Source of the DNA: Kiritimatiellia bacterium
Lineage (GTDB): Bacteria > Verrucomicrobiota > Kiritimatiellia > RFP12 > UBA1067
Assembly (NCBI GenBank): GCA_024405395.1
Contig: JAKSOW010000001.1
Location: 6,277-70,276, forward strand
Length of the DNA: 64,000 nt
Reading direction: 5' to 3'
A program made the position numbers and the translations under genes. Position 1 is the first letter of the stretch, and each line of letters opens with the position of its first letter. Positions 1 to 14,899 of the stretch are shown here, in pieces. Below the pieces are notes generated by a model, which saw only the letters and a list, made by a program, of their open reading frames with translations, searched no databases and had not been told where the DNA came from.

Positions 1-130
1 TCCTATAACTCTGTACCGCATCGGCAAAAAGCGCTGGATCCTGTATTTTGTCCCATGACGCATAGACGAAGATTGCGGCAATCCCAATTCGCAACACGCC
101 CTCAACAACAAGAACAAGCTTCTGCTTCAT
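1..130 (-). CDS. DoxX/MauE-like membrane protein, N-terminal fragment (gene continues past the left edge)
   Basis: The ATG at 130..128 overlaps the stop of the preceding small ORF (ATGA). My reverse-complement translation is MKQKLVLVVEGVLRIGIAAIFVYASWDKIQDPALFADAVQSYR. It is hydrophobic, and the xxLRIxxxxxFxxAxxDKIxDPxxFAxxVxxY pattern resembles DoxX-family N-termini. Confidence 0.5.
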   Translation of the reverse strand, partial: MKQKLVLVVEGVLRIGIAAIFVYASWDKIQDPALFADAVQSYR

Positions 131-318
131 GGCTCATCTCCTGTTTCGGACTCTCCGCTCTGGTGTGTTTCCGGTCCCGTCCACGGTATGCGTTGCTCTT
201 CGTAGACGCGCAGATTGTTGGCGATGCCCAAAAGCATCGCCAACACGATAATCGCAACCACAACAATCCAATTGAATCGCCACCCCCAAAAAGAAATTTC
301 CAGCCTGCTCATGCGCAT
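127..318 (-). CDS. small single-pass membrane protein (hypothetical)
   Basis: This is part of track ORF 127..375. ATGs at 318 and 312 lie just downstream of the protease stop (333). The product MRMSRLEISFWGWRFNWIVVVAIIVLAMLLGIANNL... has one clear hydrophobic helix followed by an acidic tail. Its stop overlaps the next ATG. Confidence 0.35.
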   Translation of the reverse strand: MRMSRLEISFWGWRFNWIVVVAIIVLAMLLGIANNLRVYEEQRIPWTGPETHQSGESETGDEP

Positions 319-332
319 ATTCCGGGACGACT

Positions 333-2015
333 TCACTTCACCACCACGGGCCAGGACATTGCGGGTTTCTTGCATACGGCAACACCTCGACCAACGCCAT
401 CAACAACAAGCCCATTCACCGTAAATTTGTACTTCGCAAGTTTGGTGCGGCCATTATTCGTCTCTAGTGCATAAATTGTGAAAGTGCCCTTGAATATTCC
501 CGTCTTGGCCGCGAACGAAAGCTTCACACCCGCATTGTTCTCAGCTTCTGGATCATACTGAAGCTCCATCTCCTGGGTTTCGCGATTCTTTGCGTATTTC
601 ACCTTACCGGCCTTGGGGAAGGTCCACTTGGCGCCCGCGACATCAAAGGCCGTTCCGTCTGGCGTCAGGCTAGACAACCAATCAAATCCCTCAGAAGAAG
701 ATGCGTCAACGGAAAGGATCGCCGTACCGTTTTCCAATCCTCCGACAATTGCCTTCTTGACGGAATAACCTTCCGTGTGCAAACCATCGCTTTCAAGCAC
801 ATATCCCTGTGCCGGATCATAGTCCACAACAATCGCCACATCGTTCACTGGCGCCTTGAACGAGAGCAGGCCAGAGATTCGATTCCCCTTCGGAGTGAAA
901 GACTTGGCCTTGGCGGCAACCTTCTTGCCATTGGGCAGAATGATGGATCCGGACACCTTGACTTCATTCTTCTTCTGGTTGTATTTCCCAAGCTTCAGCT
1001 GTACAATTCCCGCAACTTCATCACCCGCATCAATGAGAGCGCCCGAAACGGTCACAGCCTTGGTGTAGGCTGTCGTCACGTCAGGAATCGGCGCAGGCGT
1101 GGGATCGTCCTTGGGATCCTGCGGATCTTTGGGGTCAACCACAGGATCTTTCGGCTTAACACTCTTGCGAAACGCCGCAACAATCGCAAAATTGTCCTTG
1201 ACGGTCTTGGCGTTGTTGTGATTGGCGTCACCCATCGGCACACCCTCGAAATCAATGTCCGGATTGGAGAAATAGGGGATCGTCTGCCAAATTTCAGAGC
1301 TTCCGGGTTTTGGCGTATAGGCAAGCAATGTCGCATAGTTGCCGCTTGACGTCGACAGATAGAATGCCGAGGAATAGGCATCATGGCAGGGGCCATCTGT
1401 CCCATCACCATCTCCATATGTGGAAACATCCGCATGACCCGCCCCCAAGAGATGCCCTATCTCATGCGGGACGACATAGCCATCCTCATGGGCAGCAGCC
1501 TCAACACTTGCGATACAGTAGGCATACGTCGAATATAGACTGGGGCTGGGCCACCCCGCATCAAACTCCCAACCAATACCTGCAGCCCCAGCGGCAATCC
1601 GCGTAAGCACGCAAACCACATCAGCACCCACTTTTTCACGGTACTGATGAACCTTATCCCAGTCATACCCATCTCGGACATGACCTTTTCCTGTATTGTC
1701 GCACACCACATCCGTCAGCATCGAAACGACGTCGCCCGTACCCGAGGACGGCACCAGCAATTCGCCTACCGAACGAAAATCACCTGCAGAAGAGATTCCA
1801 GAATTCGCCATGACGCGGTTGAGCTTCTCTACCGAACTGGCCGTAAGCTCCGAAGGCGACACGCCAGCATCACTTAGCCAATCCTGAGCTGATTTGTCGT
1901 ATACAAACAATACGTCAATTGTTGCGGCCATGGTTATGCCTGTTGCCATCAGGATCCATGCCGCCATTATCATTTTCTTCATGTCTTTATCCTTTCTTTC
2001 CCTGCTTGTGATCAT
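333..2015 (-). CDS. secreted zinc metalloprotease, metzincin (reprolysin/M12B-like) with long non-catalytic C-terminal region
   Basis: The zinc-binding motif HEIGHLLGAGHAD (HExxHxxGxxHxD) lies at about nt 1434-1466. The signal-like N-terminus is MKKMIMAAWILMATGITMAA. The ATG at 1982 is preceded by AGGA; the alternative ATG at 2015 overlaps the upstream stop as ATGA. The C-terminal ~250 aa share modules with neighbouring genes. Confidence 0.85.
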   Translation of the reverse strand: MITSRERKDKDMKKMIMAAWILMATGITMAATIDVLFVYDKSAQDWLSDAGVSPSELTASSVEKLNRVMANSGISSAGDFRSVGELLVPSSGTGDVVSMLTDVVCDNTGKGHVRDGYDWDKVHQYREKVGADVVCVLTRIAAGAAGIGWEFDAGWPSPSLYSTYAYCIASVEAAAHEDGYVVPHEIGHLLGAGHADVSTYGDGDGTDGPCHDAYSSAFYLSTSSGNYATLLAYTPKPGSSEIWQTIPYFSNPDIDFEGVPMGDANHNNAKTVKDNFAIVAAFRKSVKPKDPVVDPKDPQDPKDDPTPAPIPDVTTAYTKAVTVSGALIDAGDEVAGIVQLKLGKYNQKKNEVKVSGSIILPNGKKVAAKAKSFTPKGNRISGLLSFKAPVNDVAIVVDYDPAQGYVLESDGLHTEGYSVKKAIVGGLENGTAILSVDASSSEGFDWLSSLTPDGTAFDVAGAKWTFPKAGKVKYAKNRETQEMELQYDPEAENNAGVKLSFAAKTGIFKGTFTIYALETNNGRTKLAKYKFTVNGLVVDGVGRGVAVCKKPAMSWPVVVK

Positions 2016-5000
2016 TTTGCAAACATGTTAAACGGAACCGTAGAAGTCATTCGCTTCCCATTCACTTCTGTCTTGTAGCTGAAATAGCCGCTCGCAAAAG
2101 GCCGTTCTGCAAACTCTCCTGGAAAACTCTCTGCTATACACCCGCAGTCGATCCATCCAGGCGTCAATACTCCGCTAAAGTTCCCTTTGACTTCCTCTTC
2201 TCCAAAGTTAAATGTGGCTTTCCCAGAAACCAAACCTGAAGATGAATTTATCCGGCAAATTGCATCGGGGACTTCTTGACCCATGATTGAACAAACTACG
2301 GATTTCAAATCAAAAAGTCCAAGCCACGATTCAAGGGTAGTACGCTTTGCATAATATATGCCATAGCAGTCCAAGTCGGATGTAAATGCATCAAACTCAC
2401 CCACATGCCGCCATCGTGCGGCTACTCCTCTCACTGGACGAACAACCCGAGCAGTGGTCTCGTCTGCATAGTACTTTTCTCCGTTAGCATGAATTCGCAA
2501 TAAAGCCGAAAGAGAATCTCTCCTTTCCGCATGCAGAATCGGCAAGATTGCGTATTCCGAATCCTCTGGATCAATTGCCAACATTGATTTCGCGCTAAAT
2601 CTCGTACCTGAAGGAAGCGACCCCTTCAACCTAACAGTGCCAGTCTTCGAAACCGAAATCATTGCATATCCGGAACCTGTGAAATTACCGCCTGACACAT
2701 TTTCCACTCCAAATGCCATCGTGTAGTAACCAGCAAACGACCTCAGCTCTCCCATTGCCGAAGATCCAGAGGCACCACCAAACTCAACGCTCAAAACACC
2801 ACTGGCAGATAAGATCAACTTGAGGCTATGTTTGGGGGAAATGAGTTGCGCCGACGCCTCTCCTGAATCAGTATTCATGTATGACCAATAACCACTGAAG
2901 AACTTTGCTTGACTCGATAATTCAACAACCTTGGCCGAAAGTTTACCCGATTTGCTTTGTTTTAGGGTTACCATTCCCACCACATCCGAAGTTCCGTCAC
3001 CTGATGCCTTCACAAGAGGCACCGTCCACAAGCCGCCAACGCCAACAAATTGATTAAACTCACGTGGATCCATGATAGTTACCGTAACCGCCACAACGCC
3101 CGAAGGAATATTGGCATTGCCAATCTTTCTCGTCACCTCATACGAGAAATCAAATATTCCCTTTTTCTTTGCCTGGCCACGCAAACACACGGCTCCCGTC
3201 TGCTCATCAACGTAAAGCCTAAGCCCATTTGGCAATTGCCCCGATTTCTTCTTTACCGTAACCCGAGAGCAACCGTCAACCTCAACAGTTTCTAAAATGC
3301 ACTTCGTTTGGAATCCAACGTACGCGGAGGCCTCCTCATTACCGCTCCCTGGGACAAATTCACAGCTCACCTCCGCTGCATAACAAGAGGAGCCTCCCGC
3401 CACACGAGCAGGCATAGTTCCAGTCAATTTCAATACCGGTCGTAGTGATTGTGCATGTGATTTTCTAACTGCAAATTCCAGGGAATTAGTTCCACAGGCC
3501 ACCACAACTCCGTCTAAGACCAGAGATATCATCACGTCATGCGTGGAAGACACCGACACCGAGAAACTACCTGTTGAGAATCCCCGCAGAATAAACGCTT
3601 CAGCAGCATCACAGATTTGGAAATCAACTTGGGCTCGTCCCCCCGCTACCGACAGCTCCCGTCTAGTTGTGGAGACATAATCAGAAGACTCATCAGCACG
3701 ATTAGCCAATTTCAGAAGATCATCAAGCCGGGCGATGTTTTCCTCTGGATCATAGTAGCGAACATCAGAACCTATTTCACCATTACGGTCTCGCCATGTT
3801 GAGCAACGACCAACAACACGTCCCTTTCCGTCAATCAACAACAGCGTTGGTGTGCTGAGACGAGTCGCAGATGTTTCTGGTGCCTTCCACTCAGAAACTG
3901 AATTTCTGACACTTCGTTCGTGGGCGGCTAACACCAAAGGATCATCAGCATGCAACCCATGGCGAGACAAATATGCAGCACCACTAACCATCTTTCTTTC
4001 ATTCCCTGTATGGATGTGCTCCAAACCCGCGGCATAGGAAAGAAGATGCCCTGCATCTGCGTAAGTGTCGCTCTCTGAGAATGCCTGATCAAACAACACC
4101 AACTGTACCCGATTGTCCTCAAGCCAATCTCGGAATAGATCCGACGCAAAAAGTGATTGTTCCATCCCTTTACAATAGGGACACCATAAGACTCCTGAAT
4201 AAATCGCCAGGATTGCTTTAGCTTTACCCTCGACGACCTTACGACACGCAAGATCATAATCAAGTGTCCAATCCGAATACCTCAACTCCTCTATTGTGCT
4301 TTCCCCCACAAAATATGGATTTGTTGGCGAATTCACCTGGGCATCAACGCAATGCACAAATGAAGAAGAGACCACATCCCCCTTAGAGTCAATAAGAGAC
4401 AGCTCTATGCTCTTTCCTGTGGGAAACTCACATCCCAGAAACTTTTCAAGCGAGAGCGATACGATGGCATTCGTCTGTCCCATTGCCCAATGAATCGCAT
4501 TTGTAACTGGGGGCAGAACATTTCCAGGCCATGCAGCAACCAACAGATTATCGTCGGCAACACCTGGAAGACGCTTCAACGGAATATCAACAAACGACGT
4601 ATTCGACTCTATCTCAAGGCGATCACCCTCTCCGTCTGAGCATTGGAAACCAGCAACTGTACGATTTGTGGTGTAGGACCCGCAGAGTTTCTGAATGCTC
4701 TGTTCCAATTCTATCGCCAACAATTCCAACATTTCTGGATCATGCTCCGCAAGCGCGGAAAGAGACATCGCGGGGTCACGCGGCACAAGCATGCGTCCAG
4801 ATCTTCCAACAAAGCTCTCAGCCAAAGTCTCAACCCCATTCTTTGGCCACCATACACAGATGAACGGGAAACTGGTGAGCCAATTTCCTACAGATTTCGT
4901 GAATCCGGCACTACGAGCGAAATCACAGGCGCCCGTCCCCTCATTTACTTCAATATCCGCGCCAGAGGTACCTTGCACATAACAATAGACATAATCTGAA

Positions 5001-5269
5001 TGCTTCGTTTGCCAAGTGCGAAACGACTCGAGATTGACTGCCGTCTCAAGCTTTTCACACTCGCCACAAGAGGAATTAGCCCAAAACAACACCAGTGGAG
5101 CCTTAAGACTCTGTGCCAGGTTGGTAGCCGCGGTGAACGACTCAAGCCAAACGCCAGTCCTAGTTTCGTTCGAAACCTGGACTGGCGAATCAGCCTGCGC
5201 ATCCAGCGCCACCAAGGCGACAGTCACTGACAGTATCAGCGTGCCGATTCTTGAATGCAATACCGTCAA
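2012..5269 (-). CDS. large exported protein with two thioredoxin-like CxxC domains and an Ig-like segment
   Basis: The track ORF runs to 5419, but its first ~50 codons overlap the upstream gene and show no signal peptide. TTG starts at 5269 or 5260 give ...HSRIGTLILSVTVALVALDAQA, a signal peptide. The CxxC contexts are LVLFWANSSCGECEKLE and LAIYSGVLWCPYCKGMEQ. An Ig-like GQLPNGLRLYVDEQTGAV segment is present. The start codon is uncertain. Confidence 0.8.
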   Translation of the reverse strand: MTVLHSRIGTLILSVTVALVALDAQADSPVQVSNETRTGVWLESFTAATNLAQSLKAPLVLFWANSSCGECEKLETAVNLESFRTWQTKHSDYVYCYVQGTSGADIEVNEGTGACDFARSAGFTKSVGNWLTSFPFICVWWPKNGVETLAESFVGRSGRMLVPRDPAMSLSALAEHDPEMLELLAIELEQSIQKLCGSYTTNRTVAGFQCSDGEGDRLEIESNTSFVDIPLKRLPGVADDNLLVAAWPGNVLPPVTNAIHWAMGQTNAIVSLSLEKFLGCEFPTGKSIELSLIDSKGDVVSSSFVHCVDAQVNSPTNPYFVGESTIEELRYSDWTLDYDLACRKVVEGKAKAILAIYSGVLWCPYCKGMEQSLFASDLFRDWLEDNRVQLVLFDQAFSESDTYADAGHLLSYAAGLEHIHTGNERKMVSGAAYLSRHGLHADDPLVLAAHERSVRNSVSEWKAPETSATRLSTPTLLLIDGKGRVVGRCSTWRDRNGEIGSDVRYYDPEENIARLDDLLKLANRADESSDYVSTTRRELSVAGGRAQVDFQICDAAEAFILRGFSTGSFSVSVSSTHDVMISLVLDGVVVACGTNSLEFAVRKSHAQSLRPVLKLTGTMPARVAGGSSCYAAEVSCEFVPGSGNEEASAYVGFQTKCILETVEVDGCSRVTVKKKSGQLPNGLRLYVDEQTGAVCLRGQAKKKGIFDFSYEVTRKIGNANIPSGVVAVTVTIMDPREFNQFVGVGGLWTVPLVKASGDGTSDVVGMVTLKQSKSGKLSAKVVELSSQAKFFSGYWSYMNTDSGEASAQLISPKHSLKLILSASGVLSVEFGGASGSSAMGELRSFAGYYTMAFGVENVSGGNFTGSGYAMISVSKTGTVRLKGSLPSGTRFSAKSMLAIDPEDSEYAILPILHAERRDSLSALLRIHANGEKYYADETTARVVRPVRGVAARWRHVGEFDAFTSDLDCYGIYYAKRTTLESWLGLFDLKSVVCSIMGQEVPDAICRINSSSGLVSGKATFNFGEEEVKGNFSGVLTPGWIDCGCIAESFPGEFAERPFASGYFSYKTEVNGKRMTSTVPFNMFAK

Positions 5270-6048
5270 TCCATCACAGCCTTGACATACGCCGGGAAGG
5301 TATACGCTTCCGTGATTTTGGTTGCCTTCTGCAACTTGGCGGATATTTTCTTGTTGTACTTGATCTTCCAAGTTCCGAATGCCGAAGACCCTTGATTCAG
5401 CGAGCAAGTCTCCCCACACTCCAGACAGATAGGCCAGCCAGGTGCCGTAGCAGTGACGGCCTCCGTTCCCTCAATCTTCTCACACCAGTTGCAAGTCCCT
5501 GAAGTGGCTTTAGTGGTCACTACCGCACCCGGCAACATCCATCCGGCGAAGCTACCGCTGACAGGTGAAATGATTGAAGAAAGGAGCGTGCATGTATTCT
5601 TATCCTTGAGCACATTGTCCTTCAGAGACCCAAATCCTGATCCAACAAGATAGAATGTACCATCTTCTGAACTCAGAATCCATGTCAGTTCACATTTGGC
5701 GGCGCTTTTGTCAATACGATTGGCAATTGGCCACTCAAGCTTGACGTTCAAAGGTTTCTGACTGGTCACATTCCAGAAGAAGTAACCAAAAGCATTGGTG
5801 CTGCTCGTATAGGGCTCACCTTTGATCAACGTATCGCAGTCACATCCCCAGATCACACCCTTGATTGTGACAGATCCCTGTTTACGATACAACGTACTCT
5901 GATCAGTACGCATATCGCAAGCAACCATCTTGGGAGTTCCCGACTGCGTAACCGTAGTCTTAACCTTAATGTCTACTTCGTAGAACTGAGCATCTGCAGA
6001 AGCTGCTCCACAAAGCAGGAGCGCAAACAACATTACGATTGTCTTCAT
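5266..6048 (-). CDS. exported Cys-rich protein, unknown family (paralog of 13779..14657)
   Basis: The signal peptide is MKTIVMLFALLLCGAASADA. The protein has more than 10 Cys. It shares with the 13779 gene the motifs YEVDIKVKT/YDLTIKLKT, T[IL]KG[VI]IW.C, GTWK[IL]KY[NS]KKI and [FM]PAY.K at the C-terminus. Confidence 0.75.
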   Translation of the reverse strand: MKTIVMLFALLLCGAASADAQFYEVDIKVKTTVTQSGTPKMVACDMRTDQSTLYRKQGSVTIKGVIWGCDCDTLIKGEPYTSSTNAFGYFFWNVTSQKPLNVKLEWPIANRIDKSAAKCELTWILSSEDGTFYLVGSGFGSLKDNVLKDKNTCTLLSSIISPVSGSFAGWMLPGAVVTTKATSGTCNWCEKIEGTEAVTATAPGWPICLECGETCSLNQGSSAFGTWKIKYNKKISAKLQKATKITEAYTFPAYVKAVMD

Positions 6049-6078
6049 TGTCTTACATCCTTTTTCAATTTTACTAGC

Positions 6079-6612
6079 TTAATCAATGGAGAACTCGGAT
6101 GTCCCAAGTTTGCTGGAGGAAGCTGTACCATACCCCTCGCTGCCGTCAAACGTACCACTGATTTTGACCGTGTACTTTTTGAGCTTCATCTTGGTGACAC
6201 CCTTCTTGGTTTCATATTCCTGCACACCATAGACCTTGAAGGATCCCTTGACTGTTCCCTTCTTGCGGTTGTAGGAAAGCTTAAGACCGGCATAATTAGA
6301 GCTTTTGTCCGAATCCTTGAGCACCAACTCGTAATCCCCATCAACCTTTTTCACTTTGACAGAAAGGGCCTTATCGGTTTTCAACTTCTTGCCTGTGAAA
6401 TAGACAGGCTCGCCATCCGGGAAAAGATCAGACTGAATTTCGATTTCATCATCCGAAATATCAAATCCATCATCCAGTGTGAATGTGAATTCGGAATCCT
6501 CATAACTCTCATCATCTTTGTCCTTATTTTTGGCAAAAGCCGAAGAGATCGGCGCAAGCACCAATCCTAACGCCAAAACACCAATTGCTGTCTTTACCCA
6601 TTTCCTGTTCAT
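6079..6612 (-). CDS. small exported protein, unknown function (shares C-terminal module with the metalloprotease)
   Basis: An AGGAG sits 7 nt upstream of the ATG. The signal peptide is MNRKWVKTAIGVLALGLVLAPISSAFA, followed by an acidic stretch. Its GLKLSYNRKKGTVKGSFKVYGVQ...KMKLKKYTVKISGTFDGSEGYG aligns with GVKLSFAAKTGIFKGTFTIYAL...TKLAKYKFTVNGLVVDGVGRG of the 333..2015 product. Confidence 0.75.
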   Translation of the reverse strand: MNRKWVKTAIGVLALGLVLAPISSAFAKNKDKDDESYEDSEFTFTLDDGFDISDDEIEIQSDLFPDGEPVYFTGKKLKTDKALSVKVKKVDGDYELVLKDSDKSSNYAGLKLSYNRKKGTVKGSFKVYGVQEYETKKGVTKMKLKKYTVKISGTFDGSEGYGTASSSKLGTSEFSID

Positions 6613-6639
6613 GATCAGTTCTCCTTTTTTTGTAAGAAA

Positions 6640-7719
6640 TCAATCTTCAGCCCTTTTGGCTTCTACCACCAATTGAAACTCGCGAACTACCTTGGTTGCC
6701 GCCACATCTCTCCCTTCAGCGGTCACGGTAATATTATAACATCCTTTTCGCCAAAGTGTACCAGAAAAAACACCTTCTTCTGAATCCAGCGAAAGTCCGA
6801 ATGGCATACCCTCTGCGCTGAATTTCATCGGCCGCGTTGCCTCTTCAACTTCTAACCGGAACTTGAATTTCTTCCCTACCTTCGCAATGATCGGTTGTTC
6901 TGGAACCGAAAATACCGGCGGCCTACAAGCAGATACATTCCTGAAATTGGCTGTATAGGTTCCCTCAGTCATACCAGAGTCAATGACTAGCTTACGAGCA
7001 TAACCTACACACCTTCCATTAGGATCCATCCATCCCCAAAACACGCTACCAGAATCATCGGCAATTGCCGTGATTACAACTGTACCACGTTCATCCGCAA
7101 GCTCCCCAGAGACTGGATCCATCTCAATTTTTCCACTCCCTCCTGTTTGAGTGAATTTGAAATACTTTGAGTCAGGACTATGCAATATCTCTTTGGGATT
7201 GGATAATTTTGCCGTATAATCAATCAAAATCTTGTCCAGAGCGGAAATCAATTCCATCTGAAGAAATTTATGTCGAATTCCAGGCATCGTTCCACGACGA
7301 CCAGAGAAAGTCCTTTTTACCTCTGTCCCGTCTTCTTTCTTCCAATATACGCAAACTATCGGTATACCAGTTACCTCCTTGAACCCCTCTCGTTGAAAAG
7401 CTTCTGTTTGCTTGAACTGAGGATTCTTGTCATTTATATGTACCATAAAAATCTTACGGTCATCTTGCCACATCTTGAAATCCGTACTATTCATGGATTT
7501 GTTCAAGCGATAACAGAAACTACATTCAGTTCCAGCACTGATAACTAGAATCGGCTTATGAGCTGATTTCGCAACCGCTAGTGCATTAGTGAAATTATCG
7601 CTCCATACACCTGGCGTAACTTCATGTACGATAGGTATTTTGGCGCTTACTTCATCCCGTCCATGACACAAGGCTGTTACTAATAAAAAAATGAATACCA
7701 CGAGCTTACTCATCTTCAT
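6640..7719 (-). CDS. exported thioredoxin-fold (CxxC) + Ig-like domain protein
   Basis: The ATG at 7719 overlaps the upstream TAA (TAATG). The signal peptide is MKMSKLVVFIFLLVTALCHG. The CxxC context is ILVISAGTECSFCYRLNKSM. IPIVCVYWKKEDGTEVKRTFSGRRGTMP is conserved in the paralogs. The Ig-like segment is AEGMPFGLSLDSEEGVFSGTL. Confidence 0.8.
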   Translation of the reverse strand: MKMSKLVVFIFLLVTALCHGRDEVSAKIPIVHEVTPGVWSDNFTNALAVAKSAHKPILVISAGTECSFCYRLNKSMNSTDFKMWQDDRKIFMVHINDKNPQFKQTEAFQREGFKEVTGIPIVCVYWKKEDGTEVKRTFSGRRGTMPGIRHKFLQMELISALDKILIDYTAKLSNPKEILHSPDSKYFKFTQTGGSGKIEMDPVSGELADERGTVVITAIADDSGSVFWGWMDPNGRCVGYARKLVIDSGMTEGTYTANFRNVSACRPPVFSVPEQPIIAKVGKKFKFRLEVEEATRPMKFSAEGMPFGLSLDSEEGVFSGTLWRKGCYNITVTAEGRDVAATKVVREFQLVVEAKRAED

Positions 7720-9551
7720 TAATTCCCTTCTTTCGTAACCAAATCTAACCAATTCGGTATGTAGAGTTCTGCCCCTGGAACCTGTTCAACCCAAGAAGGT
7801 GGCAAATCATAATCAGAAGACAACCGCCCTGCCAGACGACCAAGAATAACCCGCACCTCCATTTTCTTCTGTAAAGACTCATCTATTTTTTTCCATGAGA
7901 ATGGAGGAGAAAGGAAAATCAGTTTTTCAGGGATGCAGAGACCATGATCCTGACGGTTAAACGTTTCAAGGTATTCAGCACCTCTCCATCCAGCAAGTAC
8001 TAACGTTCGTGTCTTATCTGGCAAAGCCGAAAGTTTCCGCACGAACGCAATTGCTGGGGCATTAGTATGGGACTGGAAAAACTGTCGCATCTCCTTGCCT
8101 TGATAAATCTGATATCCGCCATCAAGAACTGCGTCATCGCCTACAATCCACACTTTGGGATCTTCTCCGTTAAGCAAAACGTGATCTGGGAATCCCTTTA
8201 TGGATACCAACTGTCTGCAATTCCTTCCCCATATACCTACCACTACAACGGCACCAAGAGAAATAACCACAGCCATACATACAGCCACCAAAATCACCCG
8301 CCGTCCAAAAGGTCTAAAATCTTTGAACCCAGAAACAAGTGAAAATATCGGCAACACCCAAAGAAGTGGCTCCTCCAACTCATGTGTGAAACAGGCTGAT
8401 ACACCAAAAGCCACAAAGACCGCAAACGGCAAAGATTTCTTGTCGCGAAACGCCCACACCGCAAACAGGAACATGAAAAACAGCCAAGCAAACACATAGC
8501 CAACACGCTCCATACAACCCATCTCTACAAGCCATGTCAAATGGCTATTCTGCAGCTCAGACACCGCCAACGGCGTATCAAAGGACTGATACCAGTCAAC
8601 ATAGGCACGACCCCCATTACCATAGCCCCAACCTGTGGGAGCATCCGCCATCATTCTCGGTACAGCAGCCCACATTGTTCGCCGATCGGTGCGGGGGTCT
8701 TGGGCAAGAAAACCGCTGGTAAACCTAGTTCCACCAAACTTAAATGCAATGCCACCAAGGGCAACCAGCAGCAACAACGCTACCAGAATTCTGCGGAACG
8801 AAAATAAATCCTTGAATTCCCTAAAATGTGGTACAATAAGGGAAACAATACCCAAAACGAATCCGAGAAGACATCCCCGCGACTGCGTAAGGAACAAGAA
8901 GACCAATGACGCCAAGAAAGGGATGACGGCAACCATCCCGAGAATTAACCGACGACCATGAAACAACACCAATGCCACGGATAGGAACATCACCGACAAC
9001 ATCATAAAGATGGCTGCCGTCTTGTTTGGATTGATGAATTCCCCAAAAGGAATCCGGAACCGACCTGATTCTTTCCAGATGTCTACAGAAGTGACATCAT
9101 CCAACATTCCTCTTTGTTTCTGCTCCCAAAGCTTAGGTATGGCTTCATCCGACTGTACAGGCTTGATGCGCTTAACAACCATCTGCTCCCGATCGAAGGT
9201 CATCTTGCGCAACGTTCCATTATAAAACTCAAATTCCGTCTGTCCCCCAGTAAAGTCATCACGCGTACGAACGGTTGTCCGCCCATATTCAGAATAACCT
9301 TCCCACGGATCTTGGGCGAGTAAACGGGAAGGATTCTCCCGATCACGATACAAATAGCGAACCGTTTGGTCGGGTTGGGTCAATCGGCAAACCTCATAAT
9401 TTATCGGGACGAAAGTGGATTCAACTACATTAGTACCCCATTTAGTTGGGTCAGTTCGAAACCCATAGTAGGCGAATGACACCCATGACTGCAACAGAAC
9501 TATTGCAATCATAAAAATACGACGAATTGACCATGACTTAAACATATTCAC
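7719..9551 (-). CDS. polytopic membrane protein, O-antigen-ligase/Wzy_C-like core with extra N- and C-terminal soluble domains
   Basis: The central region has about 10 hydrophobic helices. It includes FLTQSRGCLLGFVLGIVSL, which resembles the Wzy_C/WaaL signature region. A ~170-aa region separates the first hydrophobic segment from the core, and a ~190-aa soluble tail follows it. The start is GTG 9551 or ATG 9545, 2-8 nt after the upstream stop. Confidence 0.7.
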   Translation of the reverse strand: MNMFKSWSIRRIFMIAIVLLQSWVSFAYYGFRTDPTKWGTNVVESTFVPINYEVCRLTQPDQTVRYLYRDRENPSRLLAQDPWEGYSEYGRTTVRTRDDFTGGQTEFEFYNGTLRKMTFDREQMVVKRIKPVQSDEAIPKLWEQKQRGMLDDVTSVDIWKESGRFRIPFGEFINPNKTAAIFMMLSVMFLSVALVLFHGRRLILGMVAVIPFLASLVFLFLTQSRGCLLGFVLGIVSLIVPHFREFKDLFSFRRILVALLLLVALGGIAFKFGGTRFTSGFLAQDPRTDRRTMWAAVPRMMADAPTGWGYGNGGRAYVDWYQSFDTPLAVSELQNSHLTWLVEMGCMERVGYVFAWLFFMFLFAVWAFRDKKSLPFAVFVAFGVSACFTHELEEPLLWVLPIFSLVSGFKDFRPFGRRVILVAVCMAVVISLGAVVVVGIWGRNCRQLVSIKGFPDHVLLNGEDPKVWIVGDDAVLDGGYQIYQGKEMRQFFQSHTNAPAIAFVRKLSALPDKTRTLVLAGWRGAEYLETFNRQDHGLCIPEKLIFLSPPFSWKKIDESLQKKMEVRVILGRLAGRLSSDYDLPPSWVEQVPGAELYIPNWLDLVTKEGN

Positions 9552-9553
9552 GA

Positions 9554-10195
9554 TTATTCGTCATCCTCTTCTTCTTGATTTTCCTCAAGCCATTTCTGAG
9601 CGGTGGCAACATTTTTCCAATCATCACCCGTCACGTATTCATAAGCTTCTTTCGCCGCCGCACGCGCAACACCATTACTGCTGGCAATAAGATGAACGAT
9701 GATATCAATAGACAAAGTAGGACGCAGATCGTTCAGTTGAAATGAAATTGATTCCATAACTTCACGATCACGAACCAACATCATGGTCTCCTCAATGAGT
9801 ACACCCTTTTCATGTTCATCCTCAATATCATTAATTGCCGAATCCCATTGATCCTGTGCCTCTGATCTAACGTCTTCATCGCGGTCAAGCAAAAACGGCA
9901 TCAACGCCCGTACAGATTTTTTTCCAAACCAGCCAATGGATTCAACACAACGCAAGCGAACTACTGCATTTTTCGAATTCTTGAGCTTTTCTACATAAGA
10001 CAATGCCTCCTGAAAATCTTCCTTCTCTACAGCATTCTCAAGATCAGAAACCTGCTTCTCTTCGCTAACCGTACATTCTGATGTCTCTACAACATTCTTT
10101 TGCATTTCCTTATCGGGTTCAGACTTGCCGCAACCGCTAAGTAGACAAACAACAACAGCAATACCGACTATATTCTTCATTTCTATCACCTTCAT
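9554..10195 (-). CDS. HEAT/PBS-lyase-like repeat lipoprotein
   Basis: The ATG at 10195 overlaps the upstream TGA (ATGA). The N-terminus MKVIEMKNIVGIAVVVCLLSGCGK contains the lipobox LSGC. VRLRCVESIGWFGKKSVRALMPFLLDRDEDVRSEAQDQW is HEAT-like. The tail is acidic. It is a paralog of 11688..12614. Confidence 0.75.
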   Translation of the reverse strand: MKVIEMKNIVGIAVVVCLLSGCGKSEPDKEMQKNVVETSECTVSEEKQVSDLENAVEKEDFQEALSYVEKLKNSKNAVVRLRCVESIGWFGKKSVRALMPFLLDRDEDVRSEAQDQWDSAINDIEDEHEKGVLIEETMMLVRDREVMESISFQLNDLRPTLSIDIIVHLIASSNGVARAAAKEAYEYVTGDDWKNVATAQKWLEENQEEEDDE

Positions 10196-11685
10196 GGCAA
10201 TGAGGCCAGAACTGTAACGTTGCCTTGACCCTGAATTTTTATTGTTCCTGTGATTTTGCCAGAATTCAAATCCAGACTTAACAAACCGATGACCACATTT
10301 TTCCCAGATTTCCTGAAAACAGGCAACCAGGTCGTTACGCAATCGGTACTCTCAACCAACACACTCTTGGTATTGATGCGAAGTCTATTTGGAAACGTTC
10401 CCTTTATTGAAACTACACCTGTCTTCGCTGCCGCCTTCTTCATTACCAACTGTAGTTCTGTTTCATTTTCAAGGATAATCTTACGGTCCATAACATAAAG
10501 ACTCGCAGGAGACTTTGCTGTCCAAAGTGTATGAGAGAAACAAATTCTACGCGACACACCATCTGTAGATATGAAATTTCCTATCAGCTGCCCTTCGGAT
10601 GTAACAGCTAACAAAAATGAACATCCCACTCCCGTTCCTGAAATTTCCAATATACCATCCGATGACAAACTTTTCCACCCTTTAGAAACCGCCTTCAACT
10701 TGTTATCGACACCATCATACTGGATTTTTGCCTGTCCTTTCTCCGAGAGTGTTAAGGATATTATTCCTTGCATCTCGCCATCCTCTGACAATATAAATCC
10801 ACTTGTCTTCACCGACTTTGTGATCGTGAAGGCAGAACAGACTTTAGAAACTGGAACCACAGTAATCGTTAGGGTAAATGTCTGACTGCCCTTCTCTATT
10901 CCTACATCGCGTTTTTCAGCCAGAATCCAAGAACTGGTAAACGTACCTGCTTTAGTTGGATTTCCTTTAAACAAAACCCGTTTAGAGACAGAATCATAGG
11001 ATACCTTTATTCCCGAAGGGAGTCTTCCAGAAGCCTTCTTTACCTGCACCATCCCACCTACCGTATTGGTTACTTGAAAGTATTCCTCAAAAGGAATATG
11101 CTGAACTGACTCAACAGTTGCATTCCGAAGCGCAAACGCCGGCATTGGCTGATCCATAGGTGCCGATGGTCTAGGAGAATCTAAAGTAGAGGAAAATGCA
11201 AAGCCCGAATCAACCAAAACCTTCTCAACTGAACTAGTCAACTGCAACGCTAGGGGCCCAAGTTTCACCGGCATGTATCCATCGCGACCAACAAAAGCTC
11301 TCTCAATTATCGTTCCATCTGTTTTTGGCCAATAGATGCAAAACAACGGCAACTCATTAATCCACGGATTAATAGATCGTATGAATTTAAGTCCTGCTTT
11401 TGCATCTGAATCGCCATCATGACATACGCTCATTATTATGCGGTGGTCATAAAGCCATTCCTGAAAATCAGCACTATCTAGTGCTGACTTCATCTGATTG
11501 CACATTGGACATGAGCTACGTGCCCACAATAACAACATAGGAGTGCATGTCTCGTTAGCATAGCTAAGACCCTTGGAAAACCCCGCATTCCACTCACCTA
11601 AACATATCTCTCCCCTAGAAAAAGAAAAAGCCCATACACTGAAAACTAGAATGATATTAAAAGACAGTACCAAAATTTTTTTCAT
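10192..11685 (-). CDS. exported thioredoxin-fold (CxxC) + Ig-like domain protein
   Basis: The signal peptide is MKKILVLSFNIILVFSVWAFS. The CxxC context is MLLLWARSSCPMCNQMKSAL. ELPLFCIYWPKTDGTIIERAFVGRDGYMP is conserved with the paralogs. The Ig-like segment is GRLPSGIKVSYDSVSKRVLFKGNPTKAGTF. The start lies 2 nt after the upstream TAG. Confidence 0.8.
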   Translation of the reverse strand: MKKILVLSFNIILVFSVWAFSFSRGEICLGEWNAGFSKGLSYANETCTPMLLLWARSSCPMCNQMKSALDSADFQEWLYDHRIIMSVCHDGDSDAKAGLKFIRSINPWINELPLFCIYWPKTDGTIIERAFVGRDGYMPVKLGPLALQLTSSVEKVLVDSGFAFSSTLDSPRPSAPMDQPMPAFALRNATVESVQHIPFEEYFQVTNTVGGMVQVKKASGRLPSGIKVSYDSVSKRVLFKGNPTKAGTFTSSWILAEKRDVGIEKGSQTFTLTITVVPVSKVCSAFTITKSVKTSGFILSEDGEMQGIISLTLSEKGQAKIQYDGVDNKLKAVSKGWKSLSSDGILEISGTGVGCSFLLAVTSEGQLIGNFISTDGVSRRICFSHTLWTAKSPASLYVMDRKIILENETELQLVMKKAAAKTGVVSIKGTFPNRLRINTKSVLVESTDCVTTWLPVFRKSGKNVVIGLLSLDLNSGKITGTIKIQGQGNVTVLASLP

Positions 11686-11687
11686 TG

Positions 11688-12614
11688 CTACTCTCCTTCA
11701 GAATTTTGCCCTTCTTCTTTTGAAATCGTTTTATCAAAATTTTTTCTCTCTGGTATATCGTACTCTGTGTCGTTTATGATTTTCATACCAGAAATATCTA
11801 TTTCTGGGTCAAATACCTCTGGGTGAAGAGATGCTCGATAGACTGGTATGTCATCAGATTCTTCTGACAAATCAATGTTCTCATTGACCCAGGCTTGTGC
11901 AGCCTCAAACGTCGTATACTCCTCCCCTGTTAGAAAAGAATAAGACTCAAGTGCTACATCCACAACATCTGGATTCTCACTATTAATCAAGGCTACCACT
12001 GACTCAATCGCCGTAAAAGTTGATAGTTCATTCAAATTAAAAGCGATATCTTCCAACATATCACGGTCTTTAATCACACCCATTGTAGCTTCAATAATTG
12101 TAGCCTTAACACGCTCATCTTCGACTTGACCTAAAGCAGATAACCAAAGATCTTGTGCAGCATCACGAACATTTTCATCCTGATCAACAAGAAAAGGCGT
12201 CAACTCAGGAAGGGCTTCCTCATTAAACCAACCAAGTGCCTCAATGGCTCTAAGGCGAACAATCTCATTTGTGGAATTTCCCATTAGTTTTGCAAGTTCT
12301 TGAACTGTAGTGAAATCCTCGGCATTAAGAGCTTTATCAACTTCATCAAACAACCGTCGATCCTGTGGCGAAACCTCATCAGGAATTTGAGATCGATCAA
12401 CTTTTCGTTTTTCCCGCCTTAATGTATTAACTTTAATGCTCGTATCCCTTATCTCAACTAGTTGCTTAACATTTGCCGGTTTGCGCCTTGATATACGCAT
12501 TCCAGTTCCAGATCTATTAGTTTGCCCCTCAGTCTCTTTATTGGTTGAAATATTGAAAATGAAAATGGCTATCGTGAATAAAATTACTGAAACTAAAAAA
12601 ATCTTAATTTTCAT
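11688..12614 (-). CDS. HEAT/PBS-lyase-like repeat protein with N-terminal membrane anchor
   Basis: The ATG at 12614 lies 1 nt after the upstream TAA. The N-terminus is MKIKIFLVSVILFTIAIFIFNIS. VRLRAIEALGWFNEEALPELTPFLVDQDENVRDAAQDLW aligns closely with the 9554 gene product. The tail is acidic. Confidence 0.75.
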   Translation of the reverse strand: MKIKIFLVSVILFTIAIFIFNISTNKETEGQTNRSGTGMRISRRKPANVKQLVEIRDTSIKVNTLRREKRKVDRSQIPDEVSPQDRRLFDEVDKALNAEDFTTVQELAKLMGNSTNEIVRLRAIEALGWFNEEALPELTPFLVDQDENVRDAAQDLWLSALGQVEDERVKATIIEATMGVIKDRDMLEDIAFNLNELSTFTAIESVVALINSENPDVVDVALESYSFLTGEEYTTFEAAQAWVNENIDLSEESDDIPVYRASLHPEVFDPEIDISGMKIINDTEYDIPERKNFDKTISKEEGQNSEGE

Positions 12615-12615
12615 T

Positions 12616-13692
12616 TTACTTCTTCCTTTTACGCGTTGGGAAAACGATACCTTCTCCATAAGGATATTTGATAATCGCTTTCTTACGCAAATCGCGAATA
12701 GTATTCCCGATAACCTCTTCCTGTCGTTCCTTAATCAATTCACGTTTTATGAATTCAGGATCCTCGTCAAATATTATGGCTGTTCGCCAAACAATGCGGG
12801 CAAGATGGCGAGCAAATACTGTTCCATCACCATTCACATCTTCTTTATCGCCCAAAAATTTTACTATCTCTATCCCATCATCGGTTGTCATAACATCTGT
12901 AATCTCACCAGGCTTTAAACATACTATGCTCTCCCAATAAACTGGGGCTTCCATTGAGAAGTCATCAGCCGTGCAAAAACCCAAGTCACCTCCTGGATTT
13001 TTTTCTTCATCCTGTGAAAAATCATCAGCCAGCTCAGAGAAATCTGCACCAGCCCTTGCCCTTGCCAAAACGTTAGTTGCTTCTGCATAAATGTGAATAT
13101 TTGTCTGCACCATACGCGCATTGTATGCAATCGTTTGCGCCACTTGATTTGAAATTGCTTCGGCAGATACCAGCATTTGAGTTGCCAATGCCGTCTTAAT
13201 GTAGTGCTGGCTCCATAAATCCAGCTCTAGCATCTCTTCAATCACATGACAATTAACACCTTTATCAAAGGAACAAAGTTGTTTGAAAGACATTCCTTTT
13301 TTACCATAGCTTAACGCATATTTTTCCTGAAGCTTCAACCTTTCTTCTTTTGTTGGCACAAAATTCATCCGTTTTGCTTCACTTGCCAACAATGCCATCG
13401 GAAAAAAGTTTTGATATTCTTTCTCCCGAAACCGCGTCTTTAGCATTTGAAACTTATGATCTGCTATAGTACCGACTTTCGCTTTGGCAAAACTCAATTT
13501 TGCCATAATTTGACCCTCATATTGTCCCTTGGTCAACTTTATACCATTGACTTCTACAAGCACCGAGTCAGAGTTGAGGCTACTATATGTTTCTCTCGTG
13601 CCTTTCGCACCATAAACATTGTTTATCCCGAAAGTAAGAAACAACAAAACTATACGAACAATTTTAAATGGAGTATAAGTTTTCATTTCCAC
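12616..13692 (-). CDS. exported SurA-N/parvulin-type peptidyl-prolyl cis-trans isomerase
   Basis: The N-terminus is signal-like (IVRIVLLFLTFGINNVYG). The PpiC/parvulin signature region is GGDLGFCTADDF...LKPGEITDVMTTDDGIEIVKFLG. The preceding helical region resembles the SurA/PrsA N-terminal chaperone part. Confidence 0.8.
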   Translation of the reverse strand: MEMKTYTPFKIVRIVLLFLTFGINNVYGAKGTRETYSSLNSDSVLVEVNGIKLTKGQYEGQIMAKLSFAKAKVGTIADHKFQMLKTRFREKEYQNFFPMALLASEAKRMNFVPTKEERLKLQEKYALSYGKKGMSFKQLCSFDKGVNCHVIEEMLELDLWSQHYIKTALATQMLVSAEAISNQVAQTIAYNARMVQTNIHIYAEATNVLARARAGADFSELADDFSQDEEKNPGGDLGFCTADDFSMEAPVYWESIVCLKPGEITDVMTTDDGIEIVKFLGDKEDVNGDGTVFARHLARIVWRTAIIFDEDPEFIKRELIKERQEEVIGNTIRDLRKKAIIKYPYGEGIVFPTRKRKK

Positions 13693-13705
13693 TGCTATCT
13701 CAAAT

Positions 13706-13744
13706 GTAAAAAGCGGGAGGAAGCACTTTCATGCATCCACCCGC
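13706..13744 (-). terminator. candidate rho-independent terminator after the 13779 gene
   Basis: On the minus strand, GCGGGTGGA pairs with TCCTCCCGC (one T:T mismatch) and is followed by TTTTT. A second perfect hairpin, TTATTCGCC-GAAG-GGCGAATAA, lies at 13757..13778 directly after the stop. Confidence 0.45.
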
Positions 13745-13778
13745 CTTGTCTCAATTATTCGCCCTTCGGCGAATAACC

Positions 13779-14657: not shown

Positions 14658-14899
14658 TTTTTTTCCTTTTTTAACCGGGTAGAATCCCGTGCCTTTACGA
14701 CGGTCGATCGTTTCCCAGATGAAAACCGCTGAGATATTCGGCCGGGCCACACTAGTATACCCGTACTTTTTTACAGGAGCTACCCTGATCTCTCACGCTT
14801 CGGGGCTGCATTCAGTAGCCCAGCACGTAACAATCTTTCGACCATTACTCCTAGGGTACTGGACTAATCCAGCCACCCTTCCACGGGAGAAACGCGCAT

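Follow-up and report, generated by a model that had tools for sequence, protein, structure and literature searches.

Three paralogous genes in the 64-kb stretch of DNA analysed here (the window), which comes from an uncultured gut or rumen bacterium of the Kiritimatiellae, encode exported proteins with thioredoxin (Trx)-like modules and four different CxxC sites, which raises the question of what these proteins do in the cell envelope and with which partner. The reading that we favour, at a probability of about 0.55, is that the three proteins (P1, P2 and P3) are exported CxxC thiol-disulfide oxidoreductases, DsbA/PDI-like partners of the membrane protein MauE, in a locus for envelope-protein maturation.

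Domain layout and active sites of P1, P2 and P3

The three ORFs were found on the minus strand with the peptides quoted in the initial annotation (Table 1), and pairwise BLASTP (1e-27 to 2e-16) confirmed that their products are paralogues. They share an N-terminal module of ~140 aa (P2/P1, 1e-27; P2/P3, 2e-16; P1/P3, 1e-16 over this module), and the N-terminus of each protein resembles a signal peptide, in agreement with the export claimed earlier; they probably reside in the periplasm or are attached to the cell surface. P1, which scored 149 bits against the family HMM, is identical to an NCBI entry, 'hypothetical protein MJ240_00075 [Kiritimatiellae bacterium]'. The same HMM detected no module-bearing ORF in the 64-kb window besides P1, P2 and P3. 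The four CxxC sites, each with a different dipeptide, were located as CPMC in P1, CSFC in P2, and CGEC and CPYC in P3.

Table 1. Positions of genes, modules and active sites in the window
Feature	Position (nt)	Strand	Description
MauE/DoxX gene, 5' end (first 43 codons)	1-130	-	Runs off window start
Small single-pass membrane protein	127-375	-	ORF ≤82 aa; orthologues 56-62 aa
Zinc metalloprotease, reprolysin/Mep72-like, secreted	333-2015	-	HEIGH motif, beta-rich C-terminal domain
P3	2012-5269	-	ORF, TTG at 5269, 1085 aa
P3 Trx domain 2	3710-4297		aa ~325-520
P3 second site, CPYC	4172-4183		C363-C366
P3 Trx module 1	4670-5167		aa ~35-200, after signal peptide
P3 module 1 site, CGEC	5057-5068		C68-C71
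Cys-rich secreted protein c260	5266-6048	-	10 Cys in mature part; CxC, CxxC, CxxCxxxC motifs
p177, secreted	6079-6612	-	177 aa, no Cys; homologous to metalloprotease C-terminal domain
P2	6640-7719	-	ORF, ATG at 7719, 359 aa
P2 Trx module	7210-7623		aa ~33-170, after signal peptide
P2 site, CSFC	7513-7524		C66-C69
Wzy_C (O-antigen-ligase-like) polytopic membrane protein	7719-9551	-	610 aa; Pfam Wzy_C 49.7 bits
HEAT216, HEAT-repeat protein	9554-10204	-	216 aa; Pfam HEAT_2 25.6 bits, below GA 27.7
P1	10192-11685	-	ORF, ATG at 11685, 497 aa
P1 Trx module	11191-11613		aa ~25-165, after signal peptide
P1 site, CPMC	11500-11511		C59-C62
HEAT-repeat protein, membrane-anchored	11688-12659	-	323 aa; Pfam HEAT_2 39 bits
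PpiC/parvulin-type peptidyl-prolyl isomerase	12616-13692	-	NCBIfam peptidylprolyl isomerase 3.5e-14
Cys-rich secreted protein c293	13779-14660	-	10 Cys; first gene of cluster, rotamase gene always next

Downstream of the module the three proteins have different layouts. P1 continues with a weak He_PIG-like Ig domain (aa ~191-275; 14.5 bits, below the Pfam threshold) and ends in a beta-rich region homologous to the Ig-like and beta-rich C-terminal region of P3 (aa ~670-1085; BLASTP 2e-10, or 7e-10 in a pooled search). P2, whose start overlaps the stop of the Wzy_C gene by 1 nt, carries two C-terminal Ig-like beta-sandwich domains, one Flg_new_2-like (aa 185-261) and one He_PIG (aa 277-353). In P3 the Ig-like segment does not directly follow the module, as had been proposed for all three proteins: its 'LPNGL' lies near aa 680, ~480 aa beyond the end of module 1 at aa ~200, and Trx domain 2, flanked by two unassigned regions, stands in between. 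The second Trx module claimed for P3 was borne out, with Thioredoxin_7 (24.5 bits) and Thioredoxin_2 (26.1 bits) matches at aa 347-400 just under the gathering threshold of 27; its CPxC is conserved in ~76 of 81 long family members, and CPYC at this site is kept in 17/18. The TTG start codon of P3 shares bases with the TGA that terminates the gene before it (TTGA). The automatic gene call places this start 14 aa later, a choice that would cut away the signal peptide.

The initial annotation had made the Trx assignment depend on the fold and on a CxxC that caps the N-terminal end of helix 1. Both were seen in an AF2 model of P2 (pLDDT 91.3). The core b-a-b-a-b-b-a topology was present, C66 stood directly before helix 67-76 with C69 in its first turn, and Pro120 directly preceded strand 3 (E121-127). 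The N-terminal helix was of low confidence, as expected of a signal peptide, and the model contained standard connecting helices only, with no DsbA-type inserted helical domain. Across the family, CxxC and the Pro at the cis-Pro position were present in 148/148 aligned modules at an overall identity of 20-40%, a signature of catalytic Trx-fold proteins. Further invariant motifs are specific to the family (GxW, W57, YW after the cis-Pro strand, and FxGRxGxM). The motif P..C[IV][YW]W.K...F.GR.G.M described earlier is likewise real and conserved in the 148 members, except that its Cys is kept in only 47 of them. These results show that the modules of P1, P2 and P3 have a thioredoxin fold with an invariant CxxC and Pro.

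The CxxC dipeptide takes more than 50 forms in the family. Its second position is Y in 53, H in 23, Q in 16 and F in 12 modules and is never Pro; CGYC and CPYC are the commonest motifs, and CGHC also occurs. CGYC is the motif of DsbC, CPHC of DsbA, CGHC of PDI and CPYC of DsbG, and CxPC is of the thioredoxin/TlpA type; by this comparison the family dipeptides appear to resemble the former group rather than the latter. CPMC is kept in 7/8 P1 orthologues (~48% identity) and P2 orthologues retain C[SA]FC. This retention of a dipeptide within each orthologue group lends support to the earlier suggestion that the dipeptides may tune redox potential.

A survey of the module returned at least 357 sequence clusters (E≤1e-10). 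The family is unannotated, with all members labelled 'hypothetical', and every named member is from Kiritimatiellae; judged from these sequences, it appears restricted to Kiritimatiellae-like metagenomic lineages. Only one isolate record names its source, and it is a goat-rumen MAG. Ig domains of the He_PIG, Flg_new_2 and cadherin-like types occur in the family. Thioredoxin_7 (PF13899) matched 46/55 family members at E≤0.01 (best 5.5e-8), but P1 (15.0 bits), P2 (23.3 bits) and P3 (24.5 bits) all fell below the threshold of 27 bits. The family therefore looks like a divergent Thioredoxin_7 offshoot rather than a clean member.

Genetic tie of the module family to MauE

The cluster ends in a MauE gene, two genes downstream of P3 and joined to the operon by overlapping start and stop codons. 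Its portion inside the window translates to MKQKLVLVVEGVLRIGIAAIFVYASWDKIQDPALFADAVQSYR, and the MauE ORF of an overlapping Logan contig (L010) begins with exactly these residues. The full product (146 aa) bears the motif EIDCGCFG (CXC), and scores 101.3 bits for Pfam MauE and 33.5 bits for DoxX. By eye, its sequence shows four membrane helices, the first two of which hold the conserved Lys and Glu. The gene directly before it (ATGA overlap) encodes the small membrane protein with the conserved motif NN(L/M)RVYEEQR(I/V)PW, and the same small gene precedes MauE, or a MauE-module fusion, in three related loci (L006, L009 and L017).

MauE shares an operon with a module gene in the window locus and in L006, L007 and L009; in the relatives at ~49% identity (L006 and L009) it follows a P2-type gene. 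In four distant loci (L011, L014, L016 and L019) no MauE lies within 10 kb of the module gene, so the pairing is not obligatorily local. Fusions provide a second link, with support of the Rosetta-stone kind. The module is not N-terminal in eight family representatives, and all eight are MauE-module-Flg_new_2 fusions (MauE 82-100 bits). In four of them the scan puts the module on the side of the membrane where the CxC loop lies; it was less clean in the other four, where a hydrophobic stretch before the module was seen by eye. One fusion occupies the slot of an unfused MauE in the order small TM gene, MauE, polyprenyl synthase, UbiE, UbiA and ETF. Menaquinone and polyprenyl biosynthesis genes lie beside MauE in relatives, which fits a quinone as electron acceptor. 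These results demonstrate that the module family is genetically tied to MauE, and its members are probably the missing working partners of MauE.

A recent preprint (Gonzalez et al., bioRxiv 10.64898/2026.03.05.709764) reports that in E. coli DsbB can be replaced by MauE of two phyla, with the CXC motif required, and that 8.2% of the MauE entries in InterPro carry a fused domain of the Trx superfamily. MauE was put forward only in 2026 as the third membrane enzyme that generates disulfides in bacteria, and possibly the second most common one; the preprint also cites an earlier proposal that MauE is a reductase, and its searchable text mentions neither Kiritimatiellota nor Verrucomicrobiota. The MauE gene at the operon end, the eight MauE-module-Ig fusions and the tie of the module family to MauE are new here. 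For MauE outside the methylamine cluster, this locus offers a concrete candidate family of natural Trx-fold partners.

Locus composition and the proposed oxidative pathway

The genes around P1, P2 and P3 are those of a conserved locus. The PpiC/parvulin-type isomerase is akin to the exported folding factors PrsA and SurA, and a gene of the rotamase family sits at this position in six loci (L006, L009, L011, L014, L016 and L019). A Cys-rich family of ~250-290 aa with ~10 Cys stands, together with a parvulin rotamase, beside the module genes in 6/6 non-fusion loci examined. Its two members here, c293 and c260, are paralogues (BLASTP 1.4e-7), and c260, which has no Pfam or NCBIfam match, is translationally coupled to P3; from this neighbourhood both are candidate substrates of P1, P2 and P3. 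The position of Wzy_C is conserved in L006, L009, L011 and L019. HEAT216 and the 323-aa HEAT protein are paralogues (BLASTP 2e-41), and HEAT216 carries a probable lipoprotein signal, LLSGC (by eye). The metalloprotease passes Pfam Reprolysin_3 (26.1 bits), matches NCBIfam Mep72 (3e-11) and is translationally coupled to P3; its residues 448-554 match p177 (BLASTP 4.9e-10). Secreted proteases recur near module genes, with a Reprolysin+He_PIG gene adjoining a P3-type gene in L019 and a Peptidase_C10 gene in L011.

According to the favoured reading, the CxxC of the modules would oxidise cysteine pairs in newly exported proteins, and the CGC loop of MauE, on the periplasmic side, would return the reduced site to its oxidised state; MauE would then hand the electrons to the quinone pool. 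The Ig-like and beta-rich C-terminal domains could serve to bind substrates or to place the enzyme within the envelope. Preferred substrates would be c293, c260, the many-Cys P3 itself and the secreted protease, and the setting would be a conserved locus for envelope-protein maturation and glycosylation (rotamase, HEAT proteins and Wzy_C). MauE as the redox partner, the oxidative direction of flow and the identity of the substrates are inferred, and several observations count against the scheme: the dipeptides PM, SF and GE do not belong to the classic oxidase motifs; the need for oxidative folding and its route are less obvious in an anaerobe, which this organism probably is; the nearest neighbours of the module are mostly reductases, a reductase role of MauE has been proposed, and MauE is not always local; and the substrates are suggested by gene neighbourhood. 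If confirmed, the scheme would explain how abundant uncultured PVC bacteria of gut and rumen fold exported Cys-rich proteins and would add a new modular design to the catalysts of oxidative folding.

A more far-reaching picture, which we regard as speculative and doubtful, is a dedicated Kiritimatiellae envelope machine in which MauE drives specialised PDI-like Trx-Ig enzymes, every one with a CxxC tuned separately, that act with the parvulin chaperone, HEAT lipoproteins, a glycosyltransferase of Wzy_C type and a processing protease to build a disulfide cross-linked, glycosylated layer of surface protein from the Cys-rich proteins encoded alongside. Such a machine would be the counterpart, in free-living PVC bacteria, of the disulfide-bonded chlamydial outer membrane complex and would give the MauE pathway its first natural partner set.

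Alternative roles and known systems

The strongest alternative, possible but well short of even odds, is that P1, P2 and P3 reduce or isomerise in the manner of DsbC, DsbG, DsbH and CcmG. They would draw electrons either from MauE, working as a reductase, or from a DsbD/CcdA that is not linked to the locus, and would use them to hold envelope cysteines in the reduced state, to mend those that have become sulfenylated or to rearrange incorrect disulfides. The closest PDB sequence match is the chlamydial reductase DsbH (2ju5, E 0.0024), DsbH is the sole NCBIfam match of P3 Trx domain 2, and Kiritimatiellae share the PVC group with Chlamydiae. Reductases also predominate among the nearest neighbours in sequence and structure (DsbH, DsbD-gamma and Thioredoxin_7), and the commonest motifs, CGYC and CPYC, are those of the isomerase/reductase pair DsbC/DsbG. 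The reductase proposal cited by Gonzalez et al. would also fit. However, the DsbH match (NF043050) reaches 17.9 bits, in P3 Trx domain 2 only, against an equivalog cutoff of 190 bits, and such weak DsbH/DsbD matches point to shared Thioredoxin_7 ancestry rather than orthology. Neither the window nor the related loci contain a DsbD or CcdA gene, and the quinone biosynthesis genes beside MauE argue for oxidation, as does the complementation of a dsbB deletion by MauE, for which the CXC motif is needed, reported in the same preprint.

It is unlikely that the proteins are surface-displayed or secreted and reduce disulfides of host or dietary glycoproteins such as mucins, thereby aiding proteases and glycosidases, with the Ig-like domains acting as substrate- or glycan-binding modules. 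The Ig domain types of the family are typical of surface adhesins, module genes recur beside secreted proteases, the named source is a goat-rumen MAG with all named relatives being Kiritimatiellae MAGs, and the best PDB profile match was to AGR3, which is related to the mucin-specific PDI AGR2. Nevertheless, the AGR3 match is a marginal one (E 0.003), no signal for sorting to the outer membrane or cell surface could be recognised at the C-terminal ends of P1, P2 and P3, the fusions with MauE tether the module to the periplasmic face of the inner membrane, and a steady supply of electrons across two membranes would be needed, for which no component was seen. A reductive or extracellular role would make the family relevant to glycoprotein and mucin degradation instead.

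Least probable, and very unlikely, is a non-catalytic structural or binding module of envelope or adhesin proteins with CxxC as a permanent disulfide or metal site: the sub-threshold Pfam scores, the variable dipeptide and the mostly non-Trx, beta-rich mass of P1 and P3 would suit it, but it conflicts with the cysteine pair and Pro kept in every aligned module despite low identity and with the dipeptide conserved in each orthologue group, and it would hardly explain repeated fusion to the redox membrane protein MauE.

With the MauE-linked oxidoreductase reading preferred, the closest known system is the MauE pathway itself (MauE with MauD or DsbA; Gonzalez et al.), which shares a CGCFG MauE, a coupled exported CxxC Trx-fold protein and fusions. 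Here the partner is neither MauD nor DsbA but a divergent Thioredoxin_7-type module with Ig-like and beta-rich domains, in three paralogues with four sites. The mauFBEDACJG context of MauD is replaced by an envelope and glycan locus of rotamase, HEAT, Wzy_C, protease and Cys-rich proteins; methylamine dehydrogenase genes are absent, and Pfam/NCBIfam searches of the operon and of related loci found no MauA, MauB or MauG-like gene. VKOR-thioredoxin fusions (Dutton et al. 2008, cited by Gonzalez et al.) follow a like Rosetta-stone pattern, with a quinone-dependent thiol oxidase joined by an extra TM helix to a periplasmic Trx domain, but the fusions found here use MauE/DoxX and another Trx subfamily and add Flg_new_2 Ig-like domains.

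The architecture is also unlike DsbA, DsbC, DsbD and CcmG, as first suggested. DsbA has a ~65-aa helical domain inserted into its Trx fold and a CPHC site. The proposed logic, in which a thiol oxidase in the membrane, linked to quinones, recycles an exported Trx-fold oxidase with a CxxC site, is that of proteobacterial DsbA-DsbB; however, the P2 model has no such insertion, no window copy has CPHC, P1, P2 and P3 have no DsbA match in Pfam or NCBIfam, the membrane partner is MauE rather than DsbB, and Ig-like domains are appended. DsbH, although also from a PVC bacterium, belongs with DsbD-gamma and Thioredoxin_7 proteins to single-domain reductases fed by DsbD, which was not seen here. AGR2 and AGR3 share only the Thioredoxin_7-like subfamily, being single-domain proteins of the eukaryotic ER with a CxxS or degenerate site. 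Membership of DsbC/DsbG was considered and rejected: those proteins dimerise through an N-terminal domain and carry their Trx domain, which has a helical insert, at the C-terminal end, a layout that was not found here, where the Ig-like domains are C-terminal. PDI and DsbC/DsbG nonetheless resemble the window proteins in combining catalytic Trx domains with non-catalytic substrate-binding domains, which here are Ig-like beta-sandwiches instead of Trx-like b/b' domains, and P3 has two catalytic sites.

Three Trx-Ig proteins and the fold of their N-terminal module

We analyzed the genes of P1, P2 and P3, the exported thioredoxin (Trx) plus Ig-like proteins of the window, which lie in a minus-strand gene run with tight spacing or overlaps (window 1-14.7 kb). 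BLASTP comparison revealed a common N-terminal module of ~140 residues (P2/P1, 1e-27; P1/P3, 1e-16; P2/P3, 2e-16), in agreement with the three paralogous genes claimed by the initial annotation, and the Ig-like and beta-rich C-terminal parts of P1 and P3 were also homologous (2e-10). The four CxxC sites it had described, each with a different dipeptide, were found as CPMC in P1, CSFC in P2, and CGEC and CPYC (C363-C366) in P3. Its placement of the Ig-like segment directly after the module failed for P3, where a gap of ~480 residues follows the first module. For P3 we propose a TTG start that shares bases with the upstream gene's TGA stop (TTGA); a normal signal peptide results from this codon but not from the automatic start 14 codons downstream. 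The family HMM detected no further module copy in the 64-kb window.

Coordinates of the operon genes, in transcription order, and of features in the rest of the window and in related loci
Feature	Order	Location	Strand	Length (aa)	Description
c293	1	13779-14660	-		Cys-rich secreted protein
Rotamase	2		-		Parvulin type
HEAT323	3		-		HEAT-repeat protein
P1	4	10192-11685	-	497	Trx-Ig protein, NCBI MJ240_00075
HEAT216	5		-		HEAT-repeat protein
Wzy_C	6		-		
P2	7	6640-7719	-	359	Trx-Ig protein
p177	8		-	177	Secreted protein
c260	9	5266-6048	-		Cys-rich secreted protein
P3	10	2012-5269	-	1085	Trx-Ig protein
Protease	11		-		Reprolysin/Mep72-like
Small membrane protein	12	127-375	-		Single-pass
MauE	13	from 130, beyond window edge	-	146	Membrane protein
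Long ORF		37854-48383	+	3509	PATR and Laminin_G_3 domains
Long ORF		49537-55584	+	2015	ABC1/APH kinase-like domain near residue 1500
Long ORF		58449-62222	+	1257	GH20 hexosaminidase domain
Small membrane protein		L006 12388-12576; L009 10530-10700; L017 9834-10004			Related loci
Genes after MauE		L006 12576-17490; L009 10697-15553; L017 10001-16687			Polyprenyl synthase, UbiE-type methyltransferase, UbiA-type prenyltransferase, ETF/ETF-QO
CoA_binding_3 gene		L010 12339-13145			WbaP-like sugar transferase, after MauE in the window genome
P0101		L015 10001-11776		591	Phage protein, ENA ERZ27279213 contig (37 kb)

The module is hardly detected by curated profile libraries. He_PIG, one of the models proposed for checking the annotation, passed in P2 and was the sole Pfam pass among the profile matches of P1, P2 and P3; Thioredoxin_7, another, stayed below its threshold of 27 bits in all three (15-24.5 bits). 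Thioredoxin_2 scored 26.1 bits on the second domain of P3, and NCBIfam gave no match above noise for P1, P2 or P3. In sequence-only PDB searches, matches were marginal with the three-module profile (DsbH 2ju5, E 0.0024; AGR3, 0.0036) and still marginal with a 55-sequence profile (best match AGR3, E 0.003). Thioredoxin_7 matched 46 of the 55 family members. AlphaFold modeling of P2 reached a mean pLDDT of 91.3 with the 55-sequence family alignment, compared to 34.7 in single-sequence mode. In this model the secondary-structure order was that of a classical thioredoxin: C66 directly precedes helix 67-76, C69 lies within the first turn of that helix, and Pro120 directly precedes strand 121-127, with two beta-sandwich domains following (185-261 and 277-353). 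The predicted structure gives the module a genuine thioredoxin fold, as the initial annotation had held, with the CxxC at the N-terminus of helix 1. Membership in DsbA, DsbC/G, DsbH or MauD was rejected on the features tested.

MauE, its module fusions and the proposed redox role

The MauE gene is cut by the window edge, and the full protein was recovered from an overlapping Logan contig; it matched Pfam MauE at 101 bits and carries the motif EIDCGCFG. Its CGCFG motif is that of the MauE proteins in a 2026 preprint reporting that MauE of two phyla substitutes for DsbB in E. coli and that the CXC motif is needed, with quinone binding predicted and 8.2% of InterPro MauE entries fused to Trx-superfamily domains (10.64898/2026.03.05.709764). 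Helices 1 and 2 of the window's MauE also carry the conserved Lys and Glu, as judged by eye. All eight family representatives in which the module is not N-terminal were MauE-module-Flg_new_2 fusions (MauE, 82-100 bits). A crude hydropathy scan of the four clearest fusions showed three hydrophobic segments ahead of a CxC loop (near residue 105) and two after it, the last of them immediately before the module; by this order, loop and module face the same side. Results were less clean for the other four, in each of which a hydrophobic stretch ahead of the module was seen by eye. The P0113 fusion occupies exactly the slot that unfused MauE has in the relatives, between the small membrane gene and the block of polyprenyl synthase, UbiE, UbiA and ETF genes. 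In four distant loci, MauE was not adjacent to the module gene.

On the simplest reading, the Trx-Ig proteins would act as DsbA/PDI-like partners of MauE, with the co-encoded Cys-rich proteins as first candidate substrates; the redox direction is one that we infer. A rival reading gives the Trx-Ig proteins a reductive or isomerase role: the nearest structural relatives of the module are mostly reductases, and earlier work, as cited in the preprint, proposed MauE as a reductase (10.64898/2026.03.05.709764). The capacity of MauE to replace DsbB bears on the same question from the side of the DsbA/PDI-like reading. A further 'MauE', tied in the literature to a Campylobacter iron-uptake operon, was rejected as an author surname rather than a protein.

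The genes around MauE were also compared. The small single-pass membrane protein, which bears the conserved motif NN(L/M)RVYEEQR(I/V)PW, always directly precedes MauE or a MauE-module fusion and may serve as an accessory subunit of MauE. In relatives, the genes directly after MauE place this thiol oxidase beside quinone synthesis and electron transfer linked to quinones. The window genome differs, a CoA_binding_3 gene following MauE there.

The operon and related loci

The operon contains further paralogous pairs, namely HEAT216/HEAT323 (2e-41), c260/c293 (1.4e-7) and the C-terminal domain of the protease with p177 (4.9e-10); together with P1, P2 and P3, these pairs make window 333-14660 look segmentally duplicated. 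Start/stop overlaps at several junctions (TTGA, 5266-5269; ATGA, 127-130) point to translational coupling. The operon, which MauE closes, represents a conserved envelope locus. Relatives at ~49% identity kept the gene order without P3 and the protease; in them it continues with MauE, followed by genes for a polyprenyl synthase, UbiE, UbiA and ETF. The core of distant members was a Cys-rich protein, a rotamase and a module protein. Distant loci usually added a membrane glycosyltransferase (Wzy_C, PMT_2 or GT87), a HEAT protein and a secreted protease, together with glycan-synthesis genes (Bac_transf, ABC2, NeuB). On a second rival reading, the Trx-Ig proteins would reduce disulfides of extracellular glycoproteins jointly with the neighbouring proteases.

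The Cys-rich proteins, the candidate substrates under the DsbA/PDI-like reading, all belong to a single family and have ~10 Cys each. This secreted family (~250-290 aa), found in the window and in L006, L009, L011, L014 and L016, had no match in Pfam or NCBIfam; among its conserved motifs are G(I/L)xWxC, AG(L/F)GSFD, VSGxxAG and AYGTWK(L/I)KY(N/S)KK, and a parvulin rotamase gene always follows.

G+C was 0.46 in the operon (window 1-14660; single genes, 0.385-0.53), 0.54 at 15-28 kb and 0.63 at 28000-64000. In related loci, cluster G+C was only slightly below that of the flanks (e.g., L006, 0.566 compared to 0.60-0.62). These values suggest recent acquisition of the operon from a lower-GC relative. 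The contrast may also stem from a join made in MAG assembly, because an independent assembly spans the low-GC part alone. Three very long ORFs lie in the high-GC part, overlain by long opposite-strand ORFs, and such overlaps are usual in high-GC DNA.

Conservation, distribution and novelty of the family

Both cysteines and the proline at the cis-Pro position were invariant in 148 aligned modules, and G10, W12, P29, W57, W99, F111 and G113 were near-invariant; a purely structural role of the Trx-like module, the last rival reading, has to be set beside this invariance. The cysteine of the C[IV]YW motif was not conserved (present in 47 of the 148 modules). The CxxC dipeptide was highly variable, with CGYC (19), CSQC (12) and CPHC, CPYC and CGFC (7 each) the commonest, and Pro occupied its second position in none of the 148. 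Inside orthologue groups the dipeptide was stable: P1-type proteins had CPMC in 7 of 8 at ~48% identity, P2-type orthologues had C[SA]FC, and the second P3 site was CPYC in 17 of 18 orthologues. The first P3 site varied among orthologues.

When 1.84 billion representative proteins were searched exhaustively with the family HMM, 779 matched at E<=1e-3, of which 357 also passed E<=1e-10. Among the best 150 of the 779 matches, 68 were short (<=700 aa, one module), 80 long (>=850 aa) and 2 between; the long, P3-like members have a second Trx domain, whose site was CPxC in ~76 of 81. Few names were returned, and every member with a named source came from a Kiritimatiellae MAG and was annotated as 'hypothetical protein'; the window, with P1 as MJ240_00075, derives from such a MAG too. 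A species-genome scan with the three-sequence alignment detected one clear relative (32% identity over 133 residues, 2e-22), in a Kiritimatiellae MAG from goat rumen; the other confirmed locus lies on an Oscillospiraceae contig and matched over 36 residues alone (1e-5).

Both the Trx fold and the underlying principle, in which a membrane thiol oxidase recycles an exported CxxC protein, are known already, and the Trx-Ig assignment is an in-silico one inside a well-understood enzymatic paradigm. New are the family itself, its pairing of Ig-like domains with Trx domains that supply one or two catalytic sites, and its restriction to Kiritimatiellae-like lineages. We also count as new its coupling to MauE, in contrast to DsbB or VKOR systems. 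No published description of the Trx-plus-Ig family was found in the searchable literature. The proposed MauE partnership and the fusions would be immediately testable for disulfide-folding specialists.

Two matches were rejected as members of the Trx-Ig architecture, both being generic or peripheral Trx matches: P0121, a eukaryotic multi-Trx protein, and P0101, a phage protein whose three module copies are weak. The contig of P0101 belongs to a T4-like phage (Portal_T4, gp13 and tail-tube genes). Its DNA under table 11 does not give the recorded P0101, and the family HMM matched two separate stop-bounded ORFs there; translation in this phage may follow an alternative genetic code.
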